IMG/VR virus record: IMGVR_UViG_2713897056_000007
Reading direction: 5' to 3' (one strand)
DNA: 15,044 nucleotides
Source of the DNA: a virus
Lineage: Duplodnaviria; Heunggongvirae; Uroviricota; Caudoviricetes
Shown piece by piece: positions 3,911-13,405 of this stretch. Made by a program: the position numbers and the translations under genes. Within the stretch, counting starts at the first letter, position 1. Every line of letters starts with the position of its first letter. Below the pieces are notes generated by a model that was given only the letters and a program-made list of their open reading frames with translations, was not told the DNA's origin and made no database searches.

Positions 3911-4912
3911 TTAGTAATCTGCGTGTTTCGCACTTTTCAGAAATGCTTTCATATTTTCATTAGGTCGCTCAATTTCGAAGTTACTTCCATATAACTCTTG
4001 TAATTTTGGCCATAACTTACTTAATAACCCTCTCCTGCGATAAAATGGATGTATCCAAACGGTAGATAGGTACGGAGAATTTGCATTTGAATTGTTTATT
4101 GTGACCAGCCCAACTAAACATTGTCGATAACCACTATTATCCATTGATTGTATTTCTTCGACGAATGGATACGCGATTACATCAGTCCAACCATGATCGG
4201 TTGTATCCCATTGCATTCCGTCATGACATTCCTTCGACTGATAGCGGCGTAAAGCTACACACGCGAGCTTTTGCCAATCTGGAGAATTAATTGTGATCTC
4301 TTCATCGTATGACGCGCCTATTGGAGCGGGTATTGGTCTGATTAATCCAGCATGGCATTCATCATAGAACTTCATGTTTCCCTCAGAAACGTTGTGTACG
4401 TTGGGTTGCTCCATGTGTGCGCCATTCAAAAATAGCTCTGATAGTAGTGTATCTACACTGTAATCTTTATTGATTATTGTCGGCTTAGAGTTTTTCTTAT
4501 TAAGGCCGCGAGTAACGATTTTTTGATCAATGTTAACAACATGGAATAATCCGTCGGGGAGGCTAGCGAACCACGATGGGGCATCGGACCAGAATAGCAT
4601 GCCTTTTGTACTTCTTAAGAGTTTAATTAAGTTAATACAAGCTTCTTCACTAGTCTTGCCGTTGATGCGAAGTATGTTAGGACTAAAGTAATATTCATCC
4701 ATATCAGGGAATGCAGCTTCGCAAAACTCCTGTACATAATTTAGCACCTGGATTCTACAGAGATCATCATAGCTGGTAATAACTAAGGGGGTATCTTCAT
4801 TACTATTATGATTATCAATAATGCAATCTATAGCGAGACTTACTGCTTTGCGTATCACTTCAGTTGAATCTAACGACTCTAAAAATTTTGTCTTTCGTGT
4901 GCGAATATCCAT
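3911..4912 (-). CDS. Hypothetical protein, downstream gene of AT-rich two-gene cassette; weak GNAT-like motif near C-terminus
   Basis: 333-aa ORF, ATG at 4912, 15 nt after the stop of the upstream cassette gene. N/K/I/Y-rich, AT-rich coding sequence unlike its neighbours. C-terminal ...CLVGLVTI...YLSTVWIHPFYRRRGLLSKLW loosely resembles the GNAT CoA-binding strand-helix; tentative. Confidence 0.7.
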   Translation of the reverse strand: MDIRTRKTKFLESLDSTEVIRKAVSLAIDCIIDNHNSNEDTPLVITSYDDLCRIQVLNYVQEFCEAAFPDMDEYYFSPNILRINGKTSEEACINLIKLLRSTKGMLFWSDAPSWFASLPDGLFHVVNIDQKIVTRGLNKKNSKPTIINKDYSVDTLLSELFLNGAHMEQPNVHNVSEGNMKFYDECHAGLIRPIPAPIGASYDEEITINSPDWQKLACVALRRYQSKECHDGMQWDTTDHGWTDVIAYPFVEEIQSMDNSGYRQCLVGLVTINNSNANSPYLSTVWIHPFYRRRGLLSKLWPKLQELYGSNFEIERPNENMKAFLKSAKHADY

Positions 4913-4927
4913 GTATGACCTGCGCTA

Positions 4928-5950
4928 TTAAAATTCATGAATGAACGGTTTGTCATCTGGTTGCAAAATGGTGGTTTTATTCGTTGCTACATTTAAACTG
5001 TTGTAGAGCATAATTGCCAGGTTCGATGCATTTTCAATCAGCGTTTCAAGATCCTGGTCTGTAATCACTACGAGGTTCCCTTCTTTATCCTTTCCACCAC
5101 GATGCACTAAGTGATTTCGATTGAGGGTTGCCAATTCAATAGCTTCTATCGGACAGTCTTTTTGTACTTTTATATCGAATGTAGCTTCATAGCGGTCGAT
5201 TACCTTTTTAGTGCTATGCCAGCTTGCACTGATCAAGTGTTCCTTGATTGACCTGATTAGCTCTCCCCTAATTTTCTCGATGGGTTCACCCTTGAAAGGC
5301 AACGCAGCAATATCTTTGCTTACTTTAAATTCAGTCTTACCTTTTTCTATACAATTGGCTATGTAGACATCATCTTTCTCTATAGAATTAATGAATAGCT
5401 CAACATAAAGCGTTTCCAAAGCTGTAATAACATTCGTGTAGAGCAAACTAAGCAAGTGGTTTTTTTGCTGTTGTTCAGTTTTATCTTTTGCAAGTTTTTT
5501 TATTTTATCGATATTATCAATGAATTTTAAATACGGATTACCGGAAGACGTTACAGCGTCGTAGATATCATCATCGTACCAATCATCTATATTATTTGAG
5601 TTTCCAGACCAGTCAAAACATTGTGTTTGTAATTCATCTACTAATTCCTCAATATACTCAGATTTAACATATTGACCGAAGATGGATTGTAGTTCTTCGC
5701 TCGCATCATACGGCCCGCCATATATGTAAGCATAGCCACCTTCTCTACTTTCATACGGACAAGCATTTGCCGGATCTTCAAAGTTTTCAAAGAACCAGTT
5801 TTTCATTACTTCGAGTTGATCTTTTTTGCTTATGTATTTTAAAGATTTTAGTGGAACTTTCTTTCCATTAACCTCGAAAACAATTTTCACGATGTAACGC
5901 TCCCTTGTATCAATTGCGCAACTATTATACCACAGCGAAATACAGGGCAT
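4928..5950 (-). CDS. Hypothetical protein with C-terminal HEPN-like RNxxxH motif, upstream gene of AT-rich two-gene cassette
   Basis: ATG at 5950 preceded by AAGGAGG at 6 nt. Alternative GTG start at 5890 (MKIVFEVNGKK...) with AGGGAG SD and an extended -10 TGGTATAAT (5932-5924, minus). Motif ATLNRNHLVHRGG about 50 aa from the C-terminus fits the HEPN Rx4-6H signature. Track ORF 4928-6040 over-extends to a non-ATG start. Confidence 0.7.
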   Translation of the reverse strand: MPCISLWYNSCAIDTRERYIVKIVFEVNGKKVPLKSLKYISKKDQLEVMKNWFFENFEDPANACPYESREGGYAYIYGGPYDASEELQSIFGQYVKSEYIEELVDELQTQCFDWSGNSNNIDDWYDDDIYDAVTSSGNPYLKFIDNIDKIKKLAKDKTEQQQKNHLLSLLYTNVITALETLYVELFINSIEKDDVYIANCIEKGKTEFKVSKDIAALPFKGEPIEKIRGELIRSIKEHLISASWHSTKKVIDRYEATFDIKVQKDCPIEAIELATLNRNHLVHRGGKDKEGNLVVITDQDLETLIENASNLAIMLYNSLNVATNKTTILQPDDKPFIHEF

Positions 5951-6081
5951 AACCTGCCTCCTTAAACTAACATACCATGAGCCAGCAATGTCCGCTATTG
6001 GCACAAAGCGGACAACCACGCTAGCTCTACCCTGTGCCACAAAATGTCAATTTGCATCTGAACTAATGCACTTTAATCTCG

Positions 6082-6504
6082 TCACTTCAATAAATACCGA
6101 ACATCACCCTGATAAAACGACAATATGCGCTGCATAACTTCACTCTTCCGGCACTCGCGACAGATTATGTTCTGACGCCTGTCGTAGCGACGTATTTCTC
6201 CGTCAGGTAATGACCAGATAAGGTCCGGATCAACCGCAGATGGTTTCTTCAGCTTTGCCCTTGAGAGCTTTTTACGGGCATTTTGCCAGTCCTTACGCGC
6301 CTGTTCAGACGGGAATAACCCGTAACCAGAGTTGCATACATCGCCGCTGGCAACCAGCTCTCTTGCGAGAACGCTCATCAGATATCTTGTCGCACCTGTC
6401 TTGACTTCCAGTTGCCGTAACGTCTCACGCCCACTCTGGCGTACGAGTTCAACAACCTGTCCTTTAATTTTTTCCCGCTCTTCTTGTGTAAAAACTTTTG
6501 CCAC
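6082..6504 (-). CDS. Hypothetical prophage protein (140 aa) downstream of the replisome organizer
   Basis: GTG start at 6504 with AGGAGG 4 nt upstream; product MAKVFTQEEREKIKGQVVELVRQSG...RRQNIICRECRKSEVMQRILSFYQGD. No family recognised. Confidence 0.6.
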   Translation of the reverse strand: MAKVFTQEEREKIKGQVVELVRQSGRETLRQLEVKTGATRYLMSVLARELVASGDVCNSGYGLFPSEQARKDWQNARKKLSRAKLKKPSAVDPDLIWSLPDGEIRRYDRRQNIICRECRKSEVMQRILSFYQGDVRYLLK

Positions 6505-6644: not shown

Positions 6645-7616
6645 TCAAAATTCCGGTCCGGTCCAAAAAAACGTCGTCGCTCGCTGAACAAATTCCGTTC
6701 CCGTTTTCCCGGTAGCCGCCAAGTATCTTGCGTAACGCCTCACGCCATCCAGCATGGCCTCTGGTGGCACCCCCTCGCGTAATCTGGCCTTCCAGGCACT
6801 GAAAGCGGATTTCTTCGGGTTTGCCCCAGCACGCAACGGGTACTCCCGCCAGACCTGTTCGAACACATCCGGATAATCCACTCGTCCCACAGACTGCCCG
6901 ATGTTTTCCGGGACTACCCGATCGGCTTCCCGCTGAATGGCGGAATCGGCTTCGGGCTGCTGCAGTTGGTGTGATTGCTCCGGCCTTGCGGTCATCACCT
7001 GCTGCACAGCGCCCGAATCGGCTTTCAGCGCATACGCTGAATCGGCTTCCGGTGTCGTGCCTGCTGGCTGACCAGGATTGACGGTCTGAACATCCCCTGC
7101 CTGGTTCGTGGCGTTTTTTACGCCATGGACCATAGTGTTTTGATCTTCTTGATCTGTATCTTTATCTGTATCTTTATCTGTCGTGACTCGTCGTGACATG
7201 TGCGTGACATTTCGTGACGCGCCGTGACAATCGCCATTTTGTTCCCGCTTTCTTTCCCTCTCTCGCTGCGCCCTCTTGCGCTCTGCAGGAGATTTTGCGG
7301 TTTGCGAAATATTGCCGTTGTCCTCTTTAAGCACCTGGCGTTTTTCCCATCCAGTGATTAAATCACCATCAAGTACCCGCCCCTGCATCGTCTGCAAAAT
7401 TGAATCAATTACCTCTTCTGTCACGTCGAGCGCACTTGCCAAATCTTCTGTCGTGACATCAATGTGACCTCGCGTGACATTTCGTGACGCGCTCACCAGG
7501 AGGTGGATATACACTGCCATCACTGTTGCAATTGGCTGCCCTGACACCCTGGCAATTGTTCGCCACTTAGGGTCATTTGGCATGTCATGCCATAATCTGA
7601 GCCAGGCGTTAGCCAT
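6645..7616 (-). CDS. Phage replisome organizer / replication initiation protein (lambda O-like)
   Basis: ATG at 7616 with AGAGG upstream (track ORF starts at a GTG two codons earlier). N-terminus MANAWLRLWHDMPNDPKWRTIARVSGQPIATVMAVYIHLL is typical of the phage replisome-organizer N-terminal domain. Gene carries internal iteron-like repeats, as lambda O does. Confidence 0.75.
   Translation of the reverse strand: MANAWLRLWHDMPNDPKWRTIARVSGQPIATVMAVYIHLLVSASRNVTRGHIDVTTEDLASALDVTEEVIDSILQTMQGRVLDGDLITGWEKRQVLKEDNGNISQTAKSPAERKRAQRERERKREQNGDCHGASRNVTHMSRRVTTDKDTDKDTDQEDQNTMVHGVKNATNQAGDVQTVNPGQPAGTTPEADSAYALKADSGAVQQVMTARPEQSHQLQQPEADSAIQREADRVVPENIGQSVGRVDYPDVFEQVWREYPLRAGANPKKSAFSAWKARLREGVPPEAMLDGVRRYARYLAATGKTGTEFVQRATTFFWTGPEF
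7148..7228. repeat. Iteron-like array inside the O-like gene: tandem ATCTGTATCTTT units, then five CGTGAC motifs at 10-11 bp spacing (candidate ori)
   Basis: CGTGAC at 7182, 7192, 7203, 7213 and 7223; tandem 12-mer ATCTGTATCTTT at 7152-7175; GATC sites at 7142 and 7151. Encoded on the minus strand as ...SRRVTTDKDTDKDTD... Confidence 0.55.
7452..7488. repeat. Second CGTGAC iteron-like cluster within the O-like gene
   Basis: CGTGAC/TGTGAC at 7452, 7463, 7473 and 7483 at about 10-bp spacing; the 21-mer GCGTGACATTTCGTGACGCGC is identical to 7202-7222; an inverted copy GTCACG sits at 7419-7424. Confidence 0.5.
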
Positions 7617-7687
7617 ACTCACCTCTTCTGATACCGAATCTTTTTACTCACGAGTTGCCGGAAGCGATTCGATATGGCTATTGTCAG

Positions 7688-8113
7688 TCAATGTACTGCC
7701 ACAGCATTTCCTGCCGGGCCACCACGGTTCATCTGATTGAAACCGGCGATTGCCACTGCGACAAAATCATCAGCGTCTCTCACCAGTCGCTCCCGCGTCT
7801 CCACCAGCTCCCGAAAATAAGCTGAACTGTGGCTGCGCATTCTGGCCACCAGCAAAGGTGGCATTGCCTTTTCGATCGCTGGTAACAACGCCTGAATTTT
7901 TTCAACTGCATCAGGGGTGTCTTTCTCTATCCAGCGGAAAATTTTCTGGGTATTGCGAGCCAGGGCTTCCGGATGGCTGTCGTCGTACAGTTCAGGAAAC
8001 GTCATACCCAACTCAAAATAAGCCTGGGTTATTCCAGCTGCCGGAACTTTTTCGCCATCAGGACGCGCCCAGGCATTCATCGCCATGCGGATGTGTTCAT
8101 GCTTGATTTTCAT
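7688..8113 (-). CDS. ydaT: YdaT-like protein (CII-position gene of Rac-type immunity regions)
   Basis: ATG at 8113 preceded by AAGGGGGGA; 141-aa product MKIKHEHIRMAMNAWARPDGEK... Immediately downstream of, and overlapping, the Cro-like gene, as in Rac ydaS-ydaT. Family assignment from memory and synteny. Confidence 0.6.
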   Translation of the reverse strand: MKIKHEHIRMAMNAWARPDGEKVPAAGITQAYFELGMTFPELYDDSHPEALARNTQKIFRWIEKDTPDAVEKIQALLPAIEKAMPPLLVARMRSHSSAYFRELVETRERLVRDADDFVAVAIAGFNQMNRGGPAGNAVAVH

Positions 8114-8339
8114 GAATCCCCCCTTGGTTAGAAGGCGGATTATGATCAGAACCGGGAATGACAACCGTCGGTATGTGTAACTCATATTTGAGCGCCCCGG
8201 CAGTGACTGCCTGAATTAGCAACGCCCATTTCCACGGAACCTCTTCCCCCCACATACTGACTGTGGTTTTTGACGTTCCTAGAGCTGCGGCTGTTTTAAC
8301 AACTCCGCCAAAATAGCCTAATACTTCTGATTTTTTCAT
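8097..8339 (-). CDS. ydaS: YdaS-like Cro-type HTH regulator (cro analogue)
   Basis: ATG at 8339 with GGAG 6 nt upstream; 80-aa product MKKSEVLGYFGGVVKTAAALGTSKTTVSMWGEEVPW... (HTH of YdaS/Cro type). Divergent from the CI-like repressor; overlaps the ydaT start by 17 nt. Confidence 0.6.
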   Translation of the reverse strand: MKKSEVLGYFGGVVKTAAALGTSKTTVSMWGEEVPWKWALLIQAVTAGALKYELHIPTVVIPGSDHNPPSNQGGIHENQA

Positions 8340-8367
8340 GAGTCGCTCCATAAAACTGAACGCCAAA

Positions 8368-8433
8368 AGTTTAATAATCAAAACCAAAGAAAGTCAAGAA
8401 ACAAAACCATCTGTGTTTTAAAATCAAAACATG
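8368..8433. promoter_or_regulatory. Divergent PR / PRM-like switch region with operator palindromes
   Basis: Minus strand: -35 TTGACT (8397-8392), 18-bp spacer, -10 TAAACT (8373-8368), upstream of ydaS. Plus strand: -10-like TAAAAT (8419-8424) about 7 bp before the cI ATG, with no SD. Palindrome TGTTTT-N6-AAAACA (8414-8431) overlaps the cI start; a weaker copy at 8369-8384. Confidence 0.45.
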
Positions 8434-9069
8434 AACAAGCAAACAATATCTGAACGCATAACCCAACGTATGCATGCGCTAAACCTGAAAGGCAAAGACC
8501 TTGTCAATGCCACTGGCGCATCAAAAGGCTCCGTAAGTCAATGGATGAACGGTGGAGGAGCGCCGTCCTCGCGTTACATAAGTTCACTGGCAAAAATATT
8601 GAAAGTAAACGAAAATTGGCTTCTTAATGGAGGAGAGTTAAATACAGGTGATTCGCTTGATCTATCTTTACCGCCGATAAAAACGGTTCCGCTACTATCA
8701 CTTCAGCAGGCAGCAAGCTGGAGTGATTATATGAAAAATTCCTCAATAACCTCTTGTGTGCAGCTTGTCGGAGAAATCCCGGCCAATACCTTTGCAGTTG
8801 TTCTAGAGAGTGACAGTATGTCAACATCTGGTGGGGGAGTTTCCATCCCAAATGGTTCAACAGTTTTTGTTGATCCCGATCGAACCGTACAACCAGGAAA
8901 TATTGTCCTTGCCTTACCCAAAGGGACCACAACACCTGTCATTCGTAAACTGGAGATAGAAGGGCCGGATATTCTTTTAGTCCCCACGAATCCTCGCTAC
9001 CCTTCAATTATGCTGGATGATCTATCTTGCATATTGGGCGTATGCTTTAAAATTCAACAAAATATTTAA
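8431..9069 (+). CDS. CI-like prophage repressor (N-terminal HTH, C-terminal S24/LexA-type autopeptidase)
   Basis: 212-aa product; HTH region LKGKDLVNATGASKGSVSQWMNG; C-terminal ...VVLESDSMSTSG...VIRKLE...LLVPTNPRYPSIM parallels lambda CI (EGNSM ... FKKLIRD ... LQPLNPQYPMIP). Divergently placed relative to the Cro-like gene. Confidence 0.8.
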   Translation: MNKQTISERITQRMHALNLKGKDLVNATGASKGSVSQWMNGGGAPSSRYISSLAKILKVNENWLLNGGELNTGDSLDLSLPPIKTVPLLSLQQAASWSDYMKNSSITSCVQLVGEIPANTFAVVLESDSMSTSGGGVSIPNGSTVFVDPDRTVQPGNIVLALPKGTTTPVIRKLEIEGPDILLVPTNPRYPSIMLDDLSCILGVCFKIQQNI

Positions 9070-10933: not shown

Positions 10934-13405
10934 ATGAGTAAAGTCTTTATTTGCGCCGCTATTCCTGACGAACTGGCAACAAGGGAAGAAGGCGCTGTGG
11001 CTGTAGCCACAGCCATTGAAGCTGGCGACGAACGCCGTGCTCGAGCAAAATTTCACTGGCAGTTCCTGGAACATTATCCGGCTGCTCAGGACTGCGCTTA
11101 TAAATTTATTGTCTGCGAGGATAAACCTGGCATACCCCGCCCTGCCCTCGATTCATGGGATGCTGAATATATGCAGGAAAACCGCTGGGATGAGGAGTCT
11201 GCTTCTTTTGTCCCGGTTGAGACTGAATCCGATCCGATGAACGTCACTTTTGACAAGCTGGCCCCTGAAGTACAGAACGCTGTCATGGTTAAGTTCGACA
11301 CATGTGAAAACATCACCGTTGATATGGTTATTAGCGCACAGGAATTGTTGCAGGAAGACATGGCAACATTCGACGGACATATCGTTGAAGCGTTGATGAA
11401 AATGCCAGAAGTTAACGCCATGTATCCGGAGCTTAAGTTGCACGCCATTGGGTGGGTTAAGCATAAATGTATTCCTGGTGCTAAATGGCCCGAAATTCAG
11501 GCAGAGATGCGCATCTGGAAAAAACGTCGCGAAGGTGAACGCAAGGAAACCGGAAAATACACGTCTGTTGTTGATCTCGCCCGCGCCAGAGCCAATCAAC
11601 AGTACACTGAAAATTCAACAGGAAAAATCAGCCCGGTCATTGCTGCCATTCATCGCGAATACAAGCAGACATGGAAAACACTGGATGACGAACTGGCCTA
11701 CGCTCTCTGGCCTGGTGATGTGGATGCCGGAAACATTGACGGCAGCATCCATCGCTGGGCAAAAAAAGAAGTTATCGACAACGACCGCGAAGACTGGAAG
11801 CGTATCTCGGCATCAATGCGCAAACAGCCTGATGCCCTTCGCTACGACCGCCAGACTATTTTTGGCCTTGTCCGTGAGCGTCCGATCGACATTCACAAAG
11901 ATCCCATAGCACTGAACAAATATATCTGCGAATACCTGACGACAAAGGGCGTGTTTGAGAATGAAGAAACAGACCTGGGCACTGTTGATGTTCTCCAGTC
12001 ATCAGAAACACAAACTGATGCAGTGGAAACTGAGGTATCTGATATCCCAAAAAATGAAACCGCGCCGGAAGCTGAACCATCTGTAGAGCGTGAGGGGCCG
12101 TTCTATTTCCTCTTCGCAGATAAGGACGGAGAAAAATACGGTCGCGCAAACAAACTTTCTGGTCTGGATAAGGCACTGGCTGCTGGCGCCACTGAAATCA
12201 CAAAAGAAGAATATTTTGCCCGAAAAAATGGCACATACACGGGCTTACCGCAAAATGTAGATACCGCTGAAGATTCAGAACAACCAGAGCCGATAAAAGT
12301 TACCGCTGACGAAGTAAACAAAATTATGCAGGCAGCCAATATCAGCCAGCCTGACGCCGATAAGTTGCTTGCTGCATCACGTGGTGAATTTGTTGAAGGG
12401 ATTAGTGACCCGAATGATCCGAAATGGGTTAAGGGGATCCAGACCCGCGATTCTGTGAACCAGAACCAGCATGAATCGGAACGGAACTACCAAAAAGCGG
12501 AACAAAACAGCACAAATGCGTTACAAAACGAGCCAGAAACGAAACAGCCTGAACCAGTGGCGCAACAGGAAGTGGAAAAAGTCTGCACCGCCTGCGGTCA
12601 GACCGGCGGCGGCAACTGCCCTGATTGTGGCGCGGTGATGGGCGACGCAACATACCAAGAAACATTCGATGAAGAGTATCAGGTTGAAGTTCAGGAAGAT
12701 GATCCGGAGGAAATGGAAGGCGCTGAACATCCACACAAGGAGAACACTGGCGGCAATCAGCATCACAATAGCGATAATGAAACTGGCGAGACGGCAGATC
12801 ACTCAATTAAGGTGAACGGTCATCACGAAATCACATCCACCAGCAGGACGTGTGACCATCTAATGATCGACCTTGAAACCATGGGAAAAAATCCTGATGC
12901 CCCGATCATCTCAATAGGTGCAATATTTTTCGATCCGCAAACCGGAGATATGGGACCGGAATTTAGTAAGACTATCGATCTGGAAACTGCTGGCGGAGTC
13001 ATTGATCGGGACACCTTTAAATGGTGGCTTAAGCAATCACGCGAAGCGCAATCTGCCATTATGACCGATGAAATCCCGTTAGATGATGCACTGTTACAAT
13101 TGCGGGAATTTATCGACGAAAACTCCGGTGAATTTTTTGTTCAGGTTTGGGGAAATGGAGCCAACTTCGACAACACGATTTTGCGCCGTTCATACGAACG
13201 GCAGGGGATCCCCTGCCCGTGGCGTTACTACAACGATCGCGATGTACGCACAATCGTTGAGCTGGGGAAAGCCATAGACTTCGATGCCAGAACGGCTATT
13301 CCATTCGAAGGTGAGCGCCATAATGCACTTGATGACGCCCGTTACCAGGCAAAATACGTTTCAGTTATCTGGCAAAAACTGATCCCGAGTCAGGCTGATT
13401 CTTAA
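10934..13405 (+). CDS. Large prophage exonuclease (YdfE / exodeoxyribonuclease VIII-like) with acidic linker, CxxC zinc ribbon and C-terminal DEDDh 3'-5' exonuclease domain
   Basis: 823-aa ORF, GAGGT upstream of the ATG. C-terminal motifs IDLETMG (Exo I), WGNGANFD (Exo II) and HNALDDARY (Exo III) define a DnaQ-like DEDDh fold. CTACGQTGGGNCPDCG is a zinc-ribbon-type motif. Sits between ydfD and xis/int where Qin has ydfE. Confidence 0.8.
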   Translation: MSKVFICAAIPDELATREEGAVAVATAIEAGDERRARAKFHWQFLEHYPAAQDCAYKFIVCEDKPGIPRPALDSWDAEYMQENRWDEESASFVPVETESDPMNVTFDKLAPEVQNAVMVKFDTCENITVDMVISAQELLQEDMATFDGHIVEALMKMPEVNAMYPELKLHAIGWVKHKCIPGAKWPEIQAEMRIWKKRREGERKETGKYTSVVDLARARANQQYTENSTGKISPVIAAIHREYKQTWKTLDDELAYALWPGDVDAGNIDGSIHRWAKKEVIDNDREDWKRISASMRKQPDALRYDRQTIFGLVRERPIDIHKDPIALNKYICEYLTTKGVFENEETDLGTVDVLQSSETQTDAVETEVSDIPKNETAPEAEPSVEREGPFYFLFADKDGEKYGRANKLSGLDKALAAGATEITKEEYFARKNGTYTGLPQNVDTAEDSEQPEPIKVTADEVNKIMQAANISQPDADKLLAASRGEFVEGISDPNDPKWVKGIQTRDSVNQNQHESERNYQKAEQNSTNALQNEPETKQPEPVAQQEVEKVCTACGQTGGGNCPDCGAVMGDATYQETFDEEYQVEVQEDDPEEMEGAEHPHKENTGGNQHHNSDNETGETADHSIKVNGHHEITSTSRTCDHLMIDLETMGKNPDAPIISIGAIFFDPQTGDMGPEFSKTIDLETAGGVIDRDTFKWWLKQSREAQSAIMTDEIPLDDALLQLREFIDENSGEFFVQVWGNGANFDNTILRRSYERQGIPCPWRYYNDRDVRTIVELGKAIDFDARTAIPFEGERHNALDDARYQAKYVSVIWQKLIPSQADS

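Follow-up and report, generated by a model that had tools for sequence, protein, structure and literature searches.

A 15,044-nt stretch of DNA from a Caudoviricetes virus (IMG/VR record IMGVR_UViG_2713897056_000007; hereafter the window, to which all coordinates refer) carries on its minus strand a gene (6645..7616) for a 323-residue protein, whose protein clusters bear the NCBI name 'phage replisome organizer'. Inside this gene, referred to here as the initiator gene, lie two arrays of the short word GTCACG (CGTGAC on the plus strand) and an A-rich tract, which are considered below as a candidate replication origin; gene positions are counted along the gene. In a mechanically generated list of open reading frames (ORFs), the minus-strand frame covers 6645-7622 with a GTG start at 7622, but the ATG at 7616 is the likely start, because GAGG is located 7 nt upstream of it and homologues begin MAN(S/A)WLRLW. 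The protein comprises a winged-helix domain (residues 1 to ~98), a basic helix (residues 110-127), a disordered linker (residues ~129-245) and a helical C-terminal module (residues ~246-323). It matched PHROG 3729 'replication initiation protein' with E = 4.3e-226, residues 3-320 aligning to positions 1-318 of the 356 in the profile, and more weakly the PHROG profiles 'replisome organizer' and 'DnaD-like helicase loader'. No Pfam family was found for the whole protein at E <= 0.01, no match was obtained from NCBIfam, and sequence searches of PDB with the protein and with a profile of its N-terminal domain (N-domain) returned nothing meaningful.

The Pfam family Phage_rep_org_N (PF09681) reached 13.0 bits against the N-domain of the window, below its gathering cut-off of 23.3, and in a permissive Pfam scan of 22 diverse N-domains it gave sub-threshold matches to seven (best E = 0.002), with no Phage_rep_O match. 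An earlier note on this DNA had called the gene O-like; having no Pfam match, the protein does not belong to the lambda O family. The full-length AlphaFold2 model, which was built from a shallow alignment, had a predicted local distance difference test score (pLDDT) of 47 and was unusable, and a model of the N-domain alone was used instead. In this model the domain is predicted to be a winged helix resembling the N-terminal domain of DnaD (DnaD-NTD), its nearest structure by root-mean-square deviation; a Foldseek search of the model against PDB gave no significant match, just scattered winged helix-turn-helix regulators.

Array B, the candidate core initiator-binding array, spans 7182..7228 and consists of five direct copies of GTCACG at gene positions 389, 399, 409, 420 and 430. 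The earlier note had listed five CGTGAC copies 10-11 bp apart here, and all five were located on the plus strand at 7182, 7192, 7203, 7213 and 7223, with spacings of 10, 11, 10 and 10 bp (10/10/11/10 in gene order) and a period of 10-11 reported by Tandem Repeats Finder. Array A (7452..7488) is promoter-proximal, separated from array B by about 230 bp and situated upstream of it within the domain-coding part of the gene, its copies occupying gene positions 129, 139, 149 and 160. Four copies had been claimed for this cluster, which is indeed present, but only three are exact, at 7452, 7473 and 7483 on the plus strand (GTCACG at 7483-7488, 7473-7478 and 7452-7457 in gene orientation), whereas the fourth, TGTGAC at 7463 (GTCACA, 7463-7468), agrees in 5/6 letters. 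A 21-mer said to be common to both clusters was recovered as an exact match: GCGTGACATTTCGTGACGCGC occurs at 7202-7222 and again at 7472-7492, that is, in both arrays, where none would be expected by chance. Within 343 nt, eight same-strand copies of the motif were seen against 0.047 expected from the motif's rate in the rest of the window (Poisson P = 5e-16). The repeat unit of 10-11 bp contains a conserved core of 6-7 bp and variable flanks, its consensus nnATGTCACGCn being without a dyad. A lone inverted copy, absent from the list in the earlier note, is found at 7420..7425 (gene position 193), where it encodes D-V-T.

It had also been proposed that the repeats double as a peptide linker. 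This is the case for array B and the 12-mers that adjoin it, which encode the start of the disordered segment (C-H-G-A-S-R-N-V-T-H-M-S-R-R-V-T for array B; residues 129-188 have pLDDT < 50 in the full-length model), but not for array A, which encodes a well-ordered loop of the N-domain model (residues 43-56) between the helices 29-45 and 56-63. In the peptide of array A, A-S-R-N-V-T-R-G-H-I-D-V-T (residues 43-55), the word is read as SR, VT, GH and VT in three frames. Among the homologues, the word starts in frame 0 in 83 cases, in frame 1 in 54 and in frame 2 in 58, and is translated as S-R, V-T or G-H, the 10-bp register placing consecutive copies in consecutive reading frames. We then compared silent sites at amino-acid-conserved columns. 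In 23 distinct genes of the GTCACG family, third-codon-position entropy was 0.23 bit in the word versus 1.34 outside it (Mann-Whitney p = 1e-6), and in the family carrying the word CGAACGC the values were 0.18 and 1.20 bit, respectively (p = 3e-6). Moreover, the peptide alters along with the DNA word, for example from ASRNVTRGH to ASNATERGRTQ. These comparisons of sequence indicate that the arrays are conserved as DNA, not as protein.

Alternatively, the repeats could be a by-product of a repeated peptide (V-T, S-R-N-V-T) or of an mRNA structure or signal, since the ASRNVT peptide is present twice and the inverted copy could in principle pair with the direct copies in RNA. A peptide repeat was excluded as the cause, however, since the three frames in which the word is read give different peptides, and the freezing of silent positions in the word next to variable ones, together with the change of peptide upon change of word, also speaks against it. 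An mRNA structure as the cause of the frozen silent sites was likewise rejected: RNAalifold gave -5.5 kcal/mol with a covariation term of +0.09 and 0 compensatory pairs, and thus showed no conserved structure. A peptide or RNA explanation is therefore extremely improbable.

A comparison with homologues, which the earlier note had proposed, showed that both arrays hold their position at 58-99% amino acid identity and across several bacterial orders. Among 52 loci taken from contigs of one genome per species, about 25 homologues from Enterobacterales, Pseudomonadales, Burkholderiales and Neisseriales carry GTCAC(G) at gene positions 129, 139, 149 and 160, followed by the inverted copy at 193 and by three to five copies near 387-430. 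The inverted copy occupies the same place in most homologues of the GTCACG family, with its Val always encoded by GTG; in one gene of the GTAACG family (locus L107), this Val is encoded by GTT, which gives CGTTAC, the inverse of its own word. Among distant homologues, those of the CGAACGC class carry their word at 131, 141 and 151 and at 362, 372 onward, and those of the GTAACG class carry theirs at matching positions and spacing. In the GTCACG family, neighbouring copies are 10 bp apart in 101 cases and 11 bp apart in 30; in the CGAACGC family, the spacing is 10 bp (35 cases). Furthermore, array length varies by steps of 21 nt, each of which amounts to two units (10 + 11 bp) or seven codons and spans two helical turns, so that neither the frame of translation nor the face of the helix shifts; such steps were seen in L086 and L138 for array A and between the window and L001 for array B. 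The loop encoded by array A takes insertions of extra motif copies (L086, L105, L110, L123 and the O157 version).

In all genes examined, both arrays of any one gene carry the identical word class, and this concerted change points to one trans-acting reader with altered specificity. Such a reader might be a protein other than the initiator, in which case the arrays would be a partition site, a packaging site or the target of a host factor or of a neighbouring regulator (YdaT/CII-like, DUF977). Two sets of 4-5 repeats at 10-11-bp spacing do resemble parC, which in plasmid R1 comprises two sets of five 11-bp repeats, and a search for specificity residues in the winged-helix core found none. However, no partition or terminase gene is adjacent; when a ParR/parC-type arrangement was looked for, the neighbours proved to be Cro-like, YdaT/CII-like, DUF977/Ren-like or unknown, none of them a partition protein. 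Neighbours also vary among the genes that keep the arrays: the window has YdaT and DUF977, pAEv1818 a helicase-like gene, O157 a P-like gene, and phita81A unrelated small ORFs and a 609-residue protein. In addition, the motif classes are not sorted by host taxon, and nothing accompanies the arrays constantly except the N-domain. We consider a different reader very unlikely.

Array B directly abuts an A-rich, purine-rich tract, a candidate DNA unwinding element (7138..7181; ACAGATAAAGATACAGATAAAGATACAGATCAAGAAGATCAAAA in gene orientation), which encodes T-D-K-D-T-D-K-D-T-D-Q-E-D-Q. Local GC content drops to 0.35 at 7120-7179, and Tandem Repeats Finder detected 2.9 copies of the 12-mer TCTTTATCTGTA at 7147-7181. 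In nearly all homologues, whichever of the three word classes they belong to, a (GATAAA)n-like tract comes directly behind the final copy in array B. Measured over 45 nt in the homologues, the tract has an AT content of 66%, versus 45% for the whole gene, and purines make up 71% of its coding strand. A or T occupies 88% of its third codon positions, versus 44% of those in the remainder of the gene (n = 34, Wilcoxon p = 1e-10), and even in GC-rich genes the values are 83% versus 26%. This bias at third codon positions shows that selection for AT-richness acts on the DNA itself, which would suit an unwinding element. In E. coli the length of the tract is polymorphic: in L139 (ECL27977), the (GATAAAGATACA)n tract is 18 nt longer than the window's 7147-7181, while the iterons are identical.

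Within the tract, the 12-mer units and two GATC sites (7142-7145 and 7151-7154) described in the earlier note are both present, but the GATC pair is not conserved even in O157:H7. GATC was observed in the tract of nine of 12 homologues from Enterobacterales and Aeromonadales, orders that we take to be Dam-positive, versus one of 33 from other hosts (Fisher p = 2e-6, uncorrected for shared ancestry). The sites were seen in the window (7142-7154) and in L002, L089, L090, L096, L104, L107 and L109; the O157:H7 and E. albertii versions have no GATC in the tract.

Because the arrays are conserved in position, change their word in concert, have frozen silent sites and adjoin an AT-rich tract, the region is probably a prophage replication origin embedded in the gene of its own initiator. 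The proposal in the earlier note of a candidate origin within the replisome-organizer gene, on the plan of lambda, thus finds strong support in the comparison of homologous sequences. We infer that array B and the A-rich tract form the core origin, and that array A with the inverted copy is an auxiliary block for the same protein. With one GTCACG per helical turn of 10-11 bp, the words lie along one face of the DNA, and the initiator, through its winged-helix domain and basic helix, would bind them on that face, several protomers aligning side by side along each array. The loaded array B would then open the abutting A-rich tract, the easiest place to melt, and the variable C-terminal module would recruit the helicase. 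In the window this would be host DnaB-DnaC, since no phage loader gene follows the initiator gene, whereas relatives would use a phage DnaC-like, P-like or helicase protein in place of the host loader. Array A, as a second block for the same protein, would most likely cooperate with array B by looping or wrapping, or would tune initiation.

The arrays could instead be initiator sites that serve mainly for control, whether by autoregulating the early-right operon, by titrating or handcuffing the initiator, or by excluding prophages that reside in the same cell, with replication starting elsewhere. There are two separate arrays, and one of them, within the part that codes for the domain, has no AT-rich tract nearby. 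The module was found in 2,078 of 5,426 complete E. coli genomes, including O157:H7 prophages, and its presence in up to six copies per genome makes cross-talk possible; passages in two reports describe the inhibition of lambda by ectopic ori copies (PMC3349717, PMC4488673). Array B, however, always has next to it an AT-rich tract on which selection acts at the DNA level, and such a tract is the mark of an unwinding element. The isolated phage Tritos, whose 46-kb genome is complete, moreover has three GTCAC within 60 nt only in the two arrays of the initiator gene, its sole annotated replication gene, so that no other motif cluster is available there. A control role of array A is also compatible with an origin at array B. 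Overall, a role mainly in control is unlikely.

Several observations weigh against an origin that is bound by the encoded protein. Seven of about 50 homologues are without clear arrays, two of them combining the N-domain with a GIY-YIG-like part; the earlier note had named array-less homologues that still replicate as the case that would speak against its proposal, and homologues without arrays, as such, do exist. The distance between the two arrays is not in a fixed helical phase, with offsets of ~258 to 350 bp. The co-occurrence of arrays and N-domain is partly trivial, the arrays being inside the coding sequence of the N-domain. Motif type and the N-domain tree do not agree cleanly, the canonical recognition helix (residues 67-77) is acidic as read from the sequence, and GTCACG genes cannot be told from CGAACGC genes by any residue in the stretches 1-42 and 57-98. 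Finally, a full-text literature search returned no binding, unwinding or origin assay for any member of the family.

With regard to the N-domain tree, L109, a GTCACG gene, clusters with the GTAACG genes L105 and L107, and both words occur in L105, a pattern which suggests that position 3 of the word may simply be degenerate. The strongest discriminators between the GTCACG and CGAACGC genes are encoded by the arrays themselves: H51 versus R51, V47 versus T47, S141 versus E141 and H131 versus N131. Residue 117 of the adjoining basic helix (Q, Y or W) is also among the discriminators of the word classes. Outside the arrays, the best candidates for determinants of specificity would be residues 114 and 117 of this basic helix and a 9-residue indel. 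It is conceivable that the binding sites encode their own reader, with the loop encoded by array A (residues 43-56) and/or the linker peptide contacting the DNA word, although we regard this as quite unlikely. If it were true, one mutation would alter the site and its reader at once, and new origin specificities, as well as immunity from co-resident prophages, could arise by a route inherent in the gene.

Origins located inside initiator genes have been described in several phages. The lambda origin lies in the middle of O and consists of iterons and an AT-rich tract, extra repeats adding amino acids to the protein (PMC7466680). The present region resembles that of lambda, and also those of the Shiga toxin (Stx) phages P27 and 933W, in that the candidate origin is in the initiator gene and the repeats are followed by an A-rich tract along the direction of transcription. 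As in lambda, repeats and tract encode a linker, with DNA binding assigned to the part on its N-terminal side and helicase recruitment to the part on its C-terminal side, extra repeats mean extra amino acids (here in steps of 21 nt or seven codons), and the gene follows cro and cII in the early-right operon. In contrast to lambda, which has four iterons of roughly 19 bp, the core here is 6-7 bp in a 10/11-bp register without internal dyad symmetry, the second array lies in the region coding for a folded domain, no P gene follows the initiator gene in the window, and the protein has neither a Pfam Phage_rep_O match nor sequence homology to O.

Among phages of Gram-positive bacteria, gp38 of SPP1 binds to oriL at direct repeats that lie within gene 38, beside an AT-rich unwinding element (PMC6316719), and TP901-1 ORF13 and Tuc2009 Rep2009 bind repeats within their own genes (PMC8965321). 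The direct repeats in the organizer's own gene, adjoining an AT-rich tract, are shared with these systems, and the predicted DnaD-NTD-like winged helix, the weak similarity to PF09681 and the matching NCBI name are shared with organizers of the Phage_rep_org_N type. The present family differs from the Gram-positive organizers in its Proteobacteria hosts, its other C-terminal modules and its sub-threshold PF09681 score, and the second origin of SPP1, oriR, has no counterpart seen in the Tritos genome. In RepA_N plasmids such as pAD1, the origin is a block of short repeats inside repA, so that short initiator-site repeats are likewise translated as part of the initiator, but these are Gram-positive plasmids and their protein family is unrelated. 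The ori and crr of satellite phage P4 and the origins of SaPIs also have short initiator repeats (6-8 bp) in two separated blocks. Their initiators, however, are primase-helicase or helicase proteins, and their blocks are intergenic (P4 ori and crr being kilobases apart) or flank an AT-rich region. Compared with plasmid-type iterons, the repeats here are direct with a unit of 10-11 bp, not 17-22. The plan of an origin in the initiator gene is thus already known; unusual here are the short core at 10/11 bp, the two arrays with one in a sequence coding for a folded domain, the overprinting in three reading frames and the presence of at least two or three word classes. A full-text literature search found no description of an origin in this gene family.

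The initiator gene of the window is a mosaic. Its C-terminal half (up to ~7140) has ~81% DNA identity to the Stx phages POCJ13 and 75/02, and its N-terminal half with both arrays (7150-7605) has ~70% identity to Pseudomonas phages and an Aeromonas phage. The joint falls in the purine-rich tract at 7140-7155, where similarity to the N-module stops and similarity to the C-module of the Stx phages begins, and the common (GATAAA)n sequence may serve as a recombination joint that shuffles N- and C-modules. Genes with the same N-module keep the arrays, with 4 + 4 copies in Pseudomonas phage phita81A and 4 + 3 in Aeromonas phage pAEv1818. In the Stx phages POCJ13 and PhiR5_2, which have the C-module alone in common and a different N-module, the arrays are absent, and a scan of genes with the N-domain of the Stx-phage type for repeats of their own found only the in-frame EADS-coding repeats of the common C-module. 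Across the family the C-terminal modules, which are of DnaT-like, Stx-phage and other types, are interchangeable; in the O157:H7 version, the N-domain is fused to a DnaT-like domain and a P-like gene follows. The gene after the initiator encodes DnaC in POCJ13 and PhiR5_2, a 'replicative helicase' in pAEv1818, a 609-residue protein in phita81A and a P-like protein in O157. The same N-domain was also seen fused to a GIY-YIG-like segment (L126 and L134, without arrays) and to HNH domains (PF01844, PF14279), in proteins that include P0141, P0151 and P0178.

The family comprises roughly 1,400 protein relatives and 583 IMG/VR loci, and the module is also present in phages of Pseudomonas, Aeromonas and many other Proteobacteria. 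Knowledge of the origin and of its classes (GTCACG, GTAACG and CGAACGC) would make it possible to predict cross-activation or titration among the initiators of co-resident prophages, and would offer a handle for compatible phage-derived replicons. Furthermore, with sites overprinted in three frames on the protein's own coding sequence, the family is a natural system for studying the co-evolution of a protein and its sites.

Just past the A-rich tract, an inverted repeat with a 13-bp stem and a 5-nt loop is located at 7102..7132 (DNA fold -10.9 kcal/mol, z = -4.5); on the plus strand it is terminator-like and followed by a T-rich tail. It recalls ori-lambda, in which a palindrome stands beside the AT-rich region. 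The hairpin is kept in POCJ13 and belongs to the C-module common to Stx phages, not being tied to the arrays, and homologues with other C-modules have no general hairpin after the A-rich tract. It was therefore dropped as a conserved, ori-lambda-like part of the origin, though it may take part in the candidate origin of the window. Further along the gene, in the disordered middle of the initiator, the plus strand carries four copies of GAATCGGCTT(C) at 6919-7052 (GAAGCCGATTC in gene orientation), which encode the peptide (E/K)-A-D-S and are arranged as two pairs 24 bp apart, the pairs being 96 bp apart. The POCJ13 gene has the same repeats (L003, 2794-2903); all copies are in one frame, so that a peptide motif and a DNA site are indistinguishable for them.

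The early region of the window is lambdoid, with a CI-like repressor gene (8431-9069, plus strand), a P22-Cro-like gene (8097-8387, minus strand), a YdaT/CII-like gene (7688-8185, minus strand), then the initiator gene, and then the DUF977/Ren-like gene (6082-6504, minus strand). Downstream of the initiator gene (3911-6504), no helicase, DnaC-like or P-like gene was found. The genes there are, besides the DUF977/Ren-like gene, those for a 370-residue protein (PHROG 17908, with a weak HEPN/RES match at its N terminus) and a 333-residue protein (PHROG 16994, with a weak GNAT match). On the plus strand, an 823-residue ORF (10934-13405) carries a C-terminal Rv2179c-like 3'-5' exonuclease domain (E = 1e-66). 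Phage Tritos has an equally long gene (2,472 nt) in a similar place, annotated as exonuclease VIII (RecE), the likeness being one of length and position alone. This exonuclease ORF and, in Tritos, the genes DicB, DicF and YdfD place the window among Rac/Qin-like lambdoid prophages.

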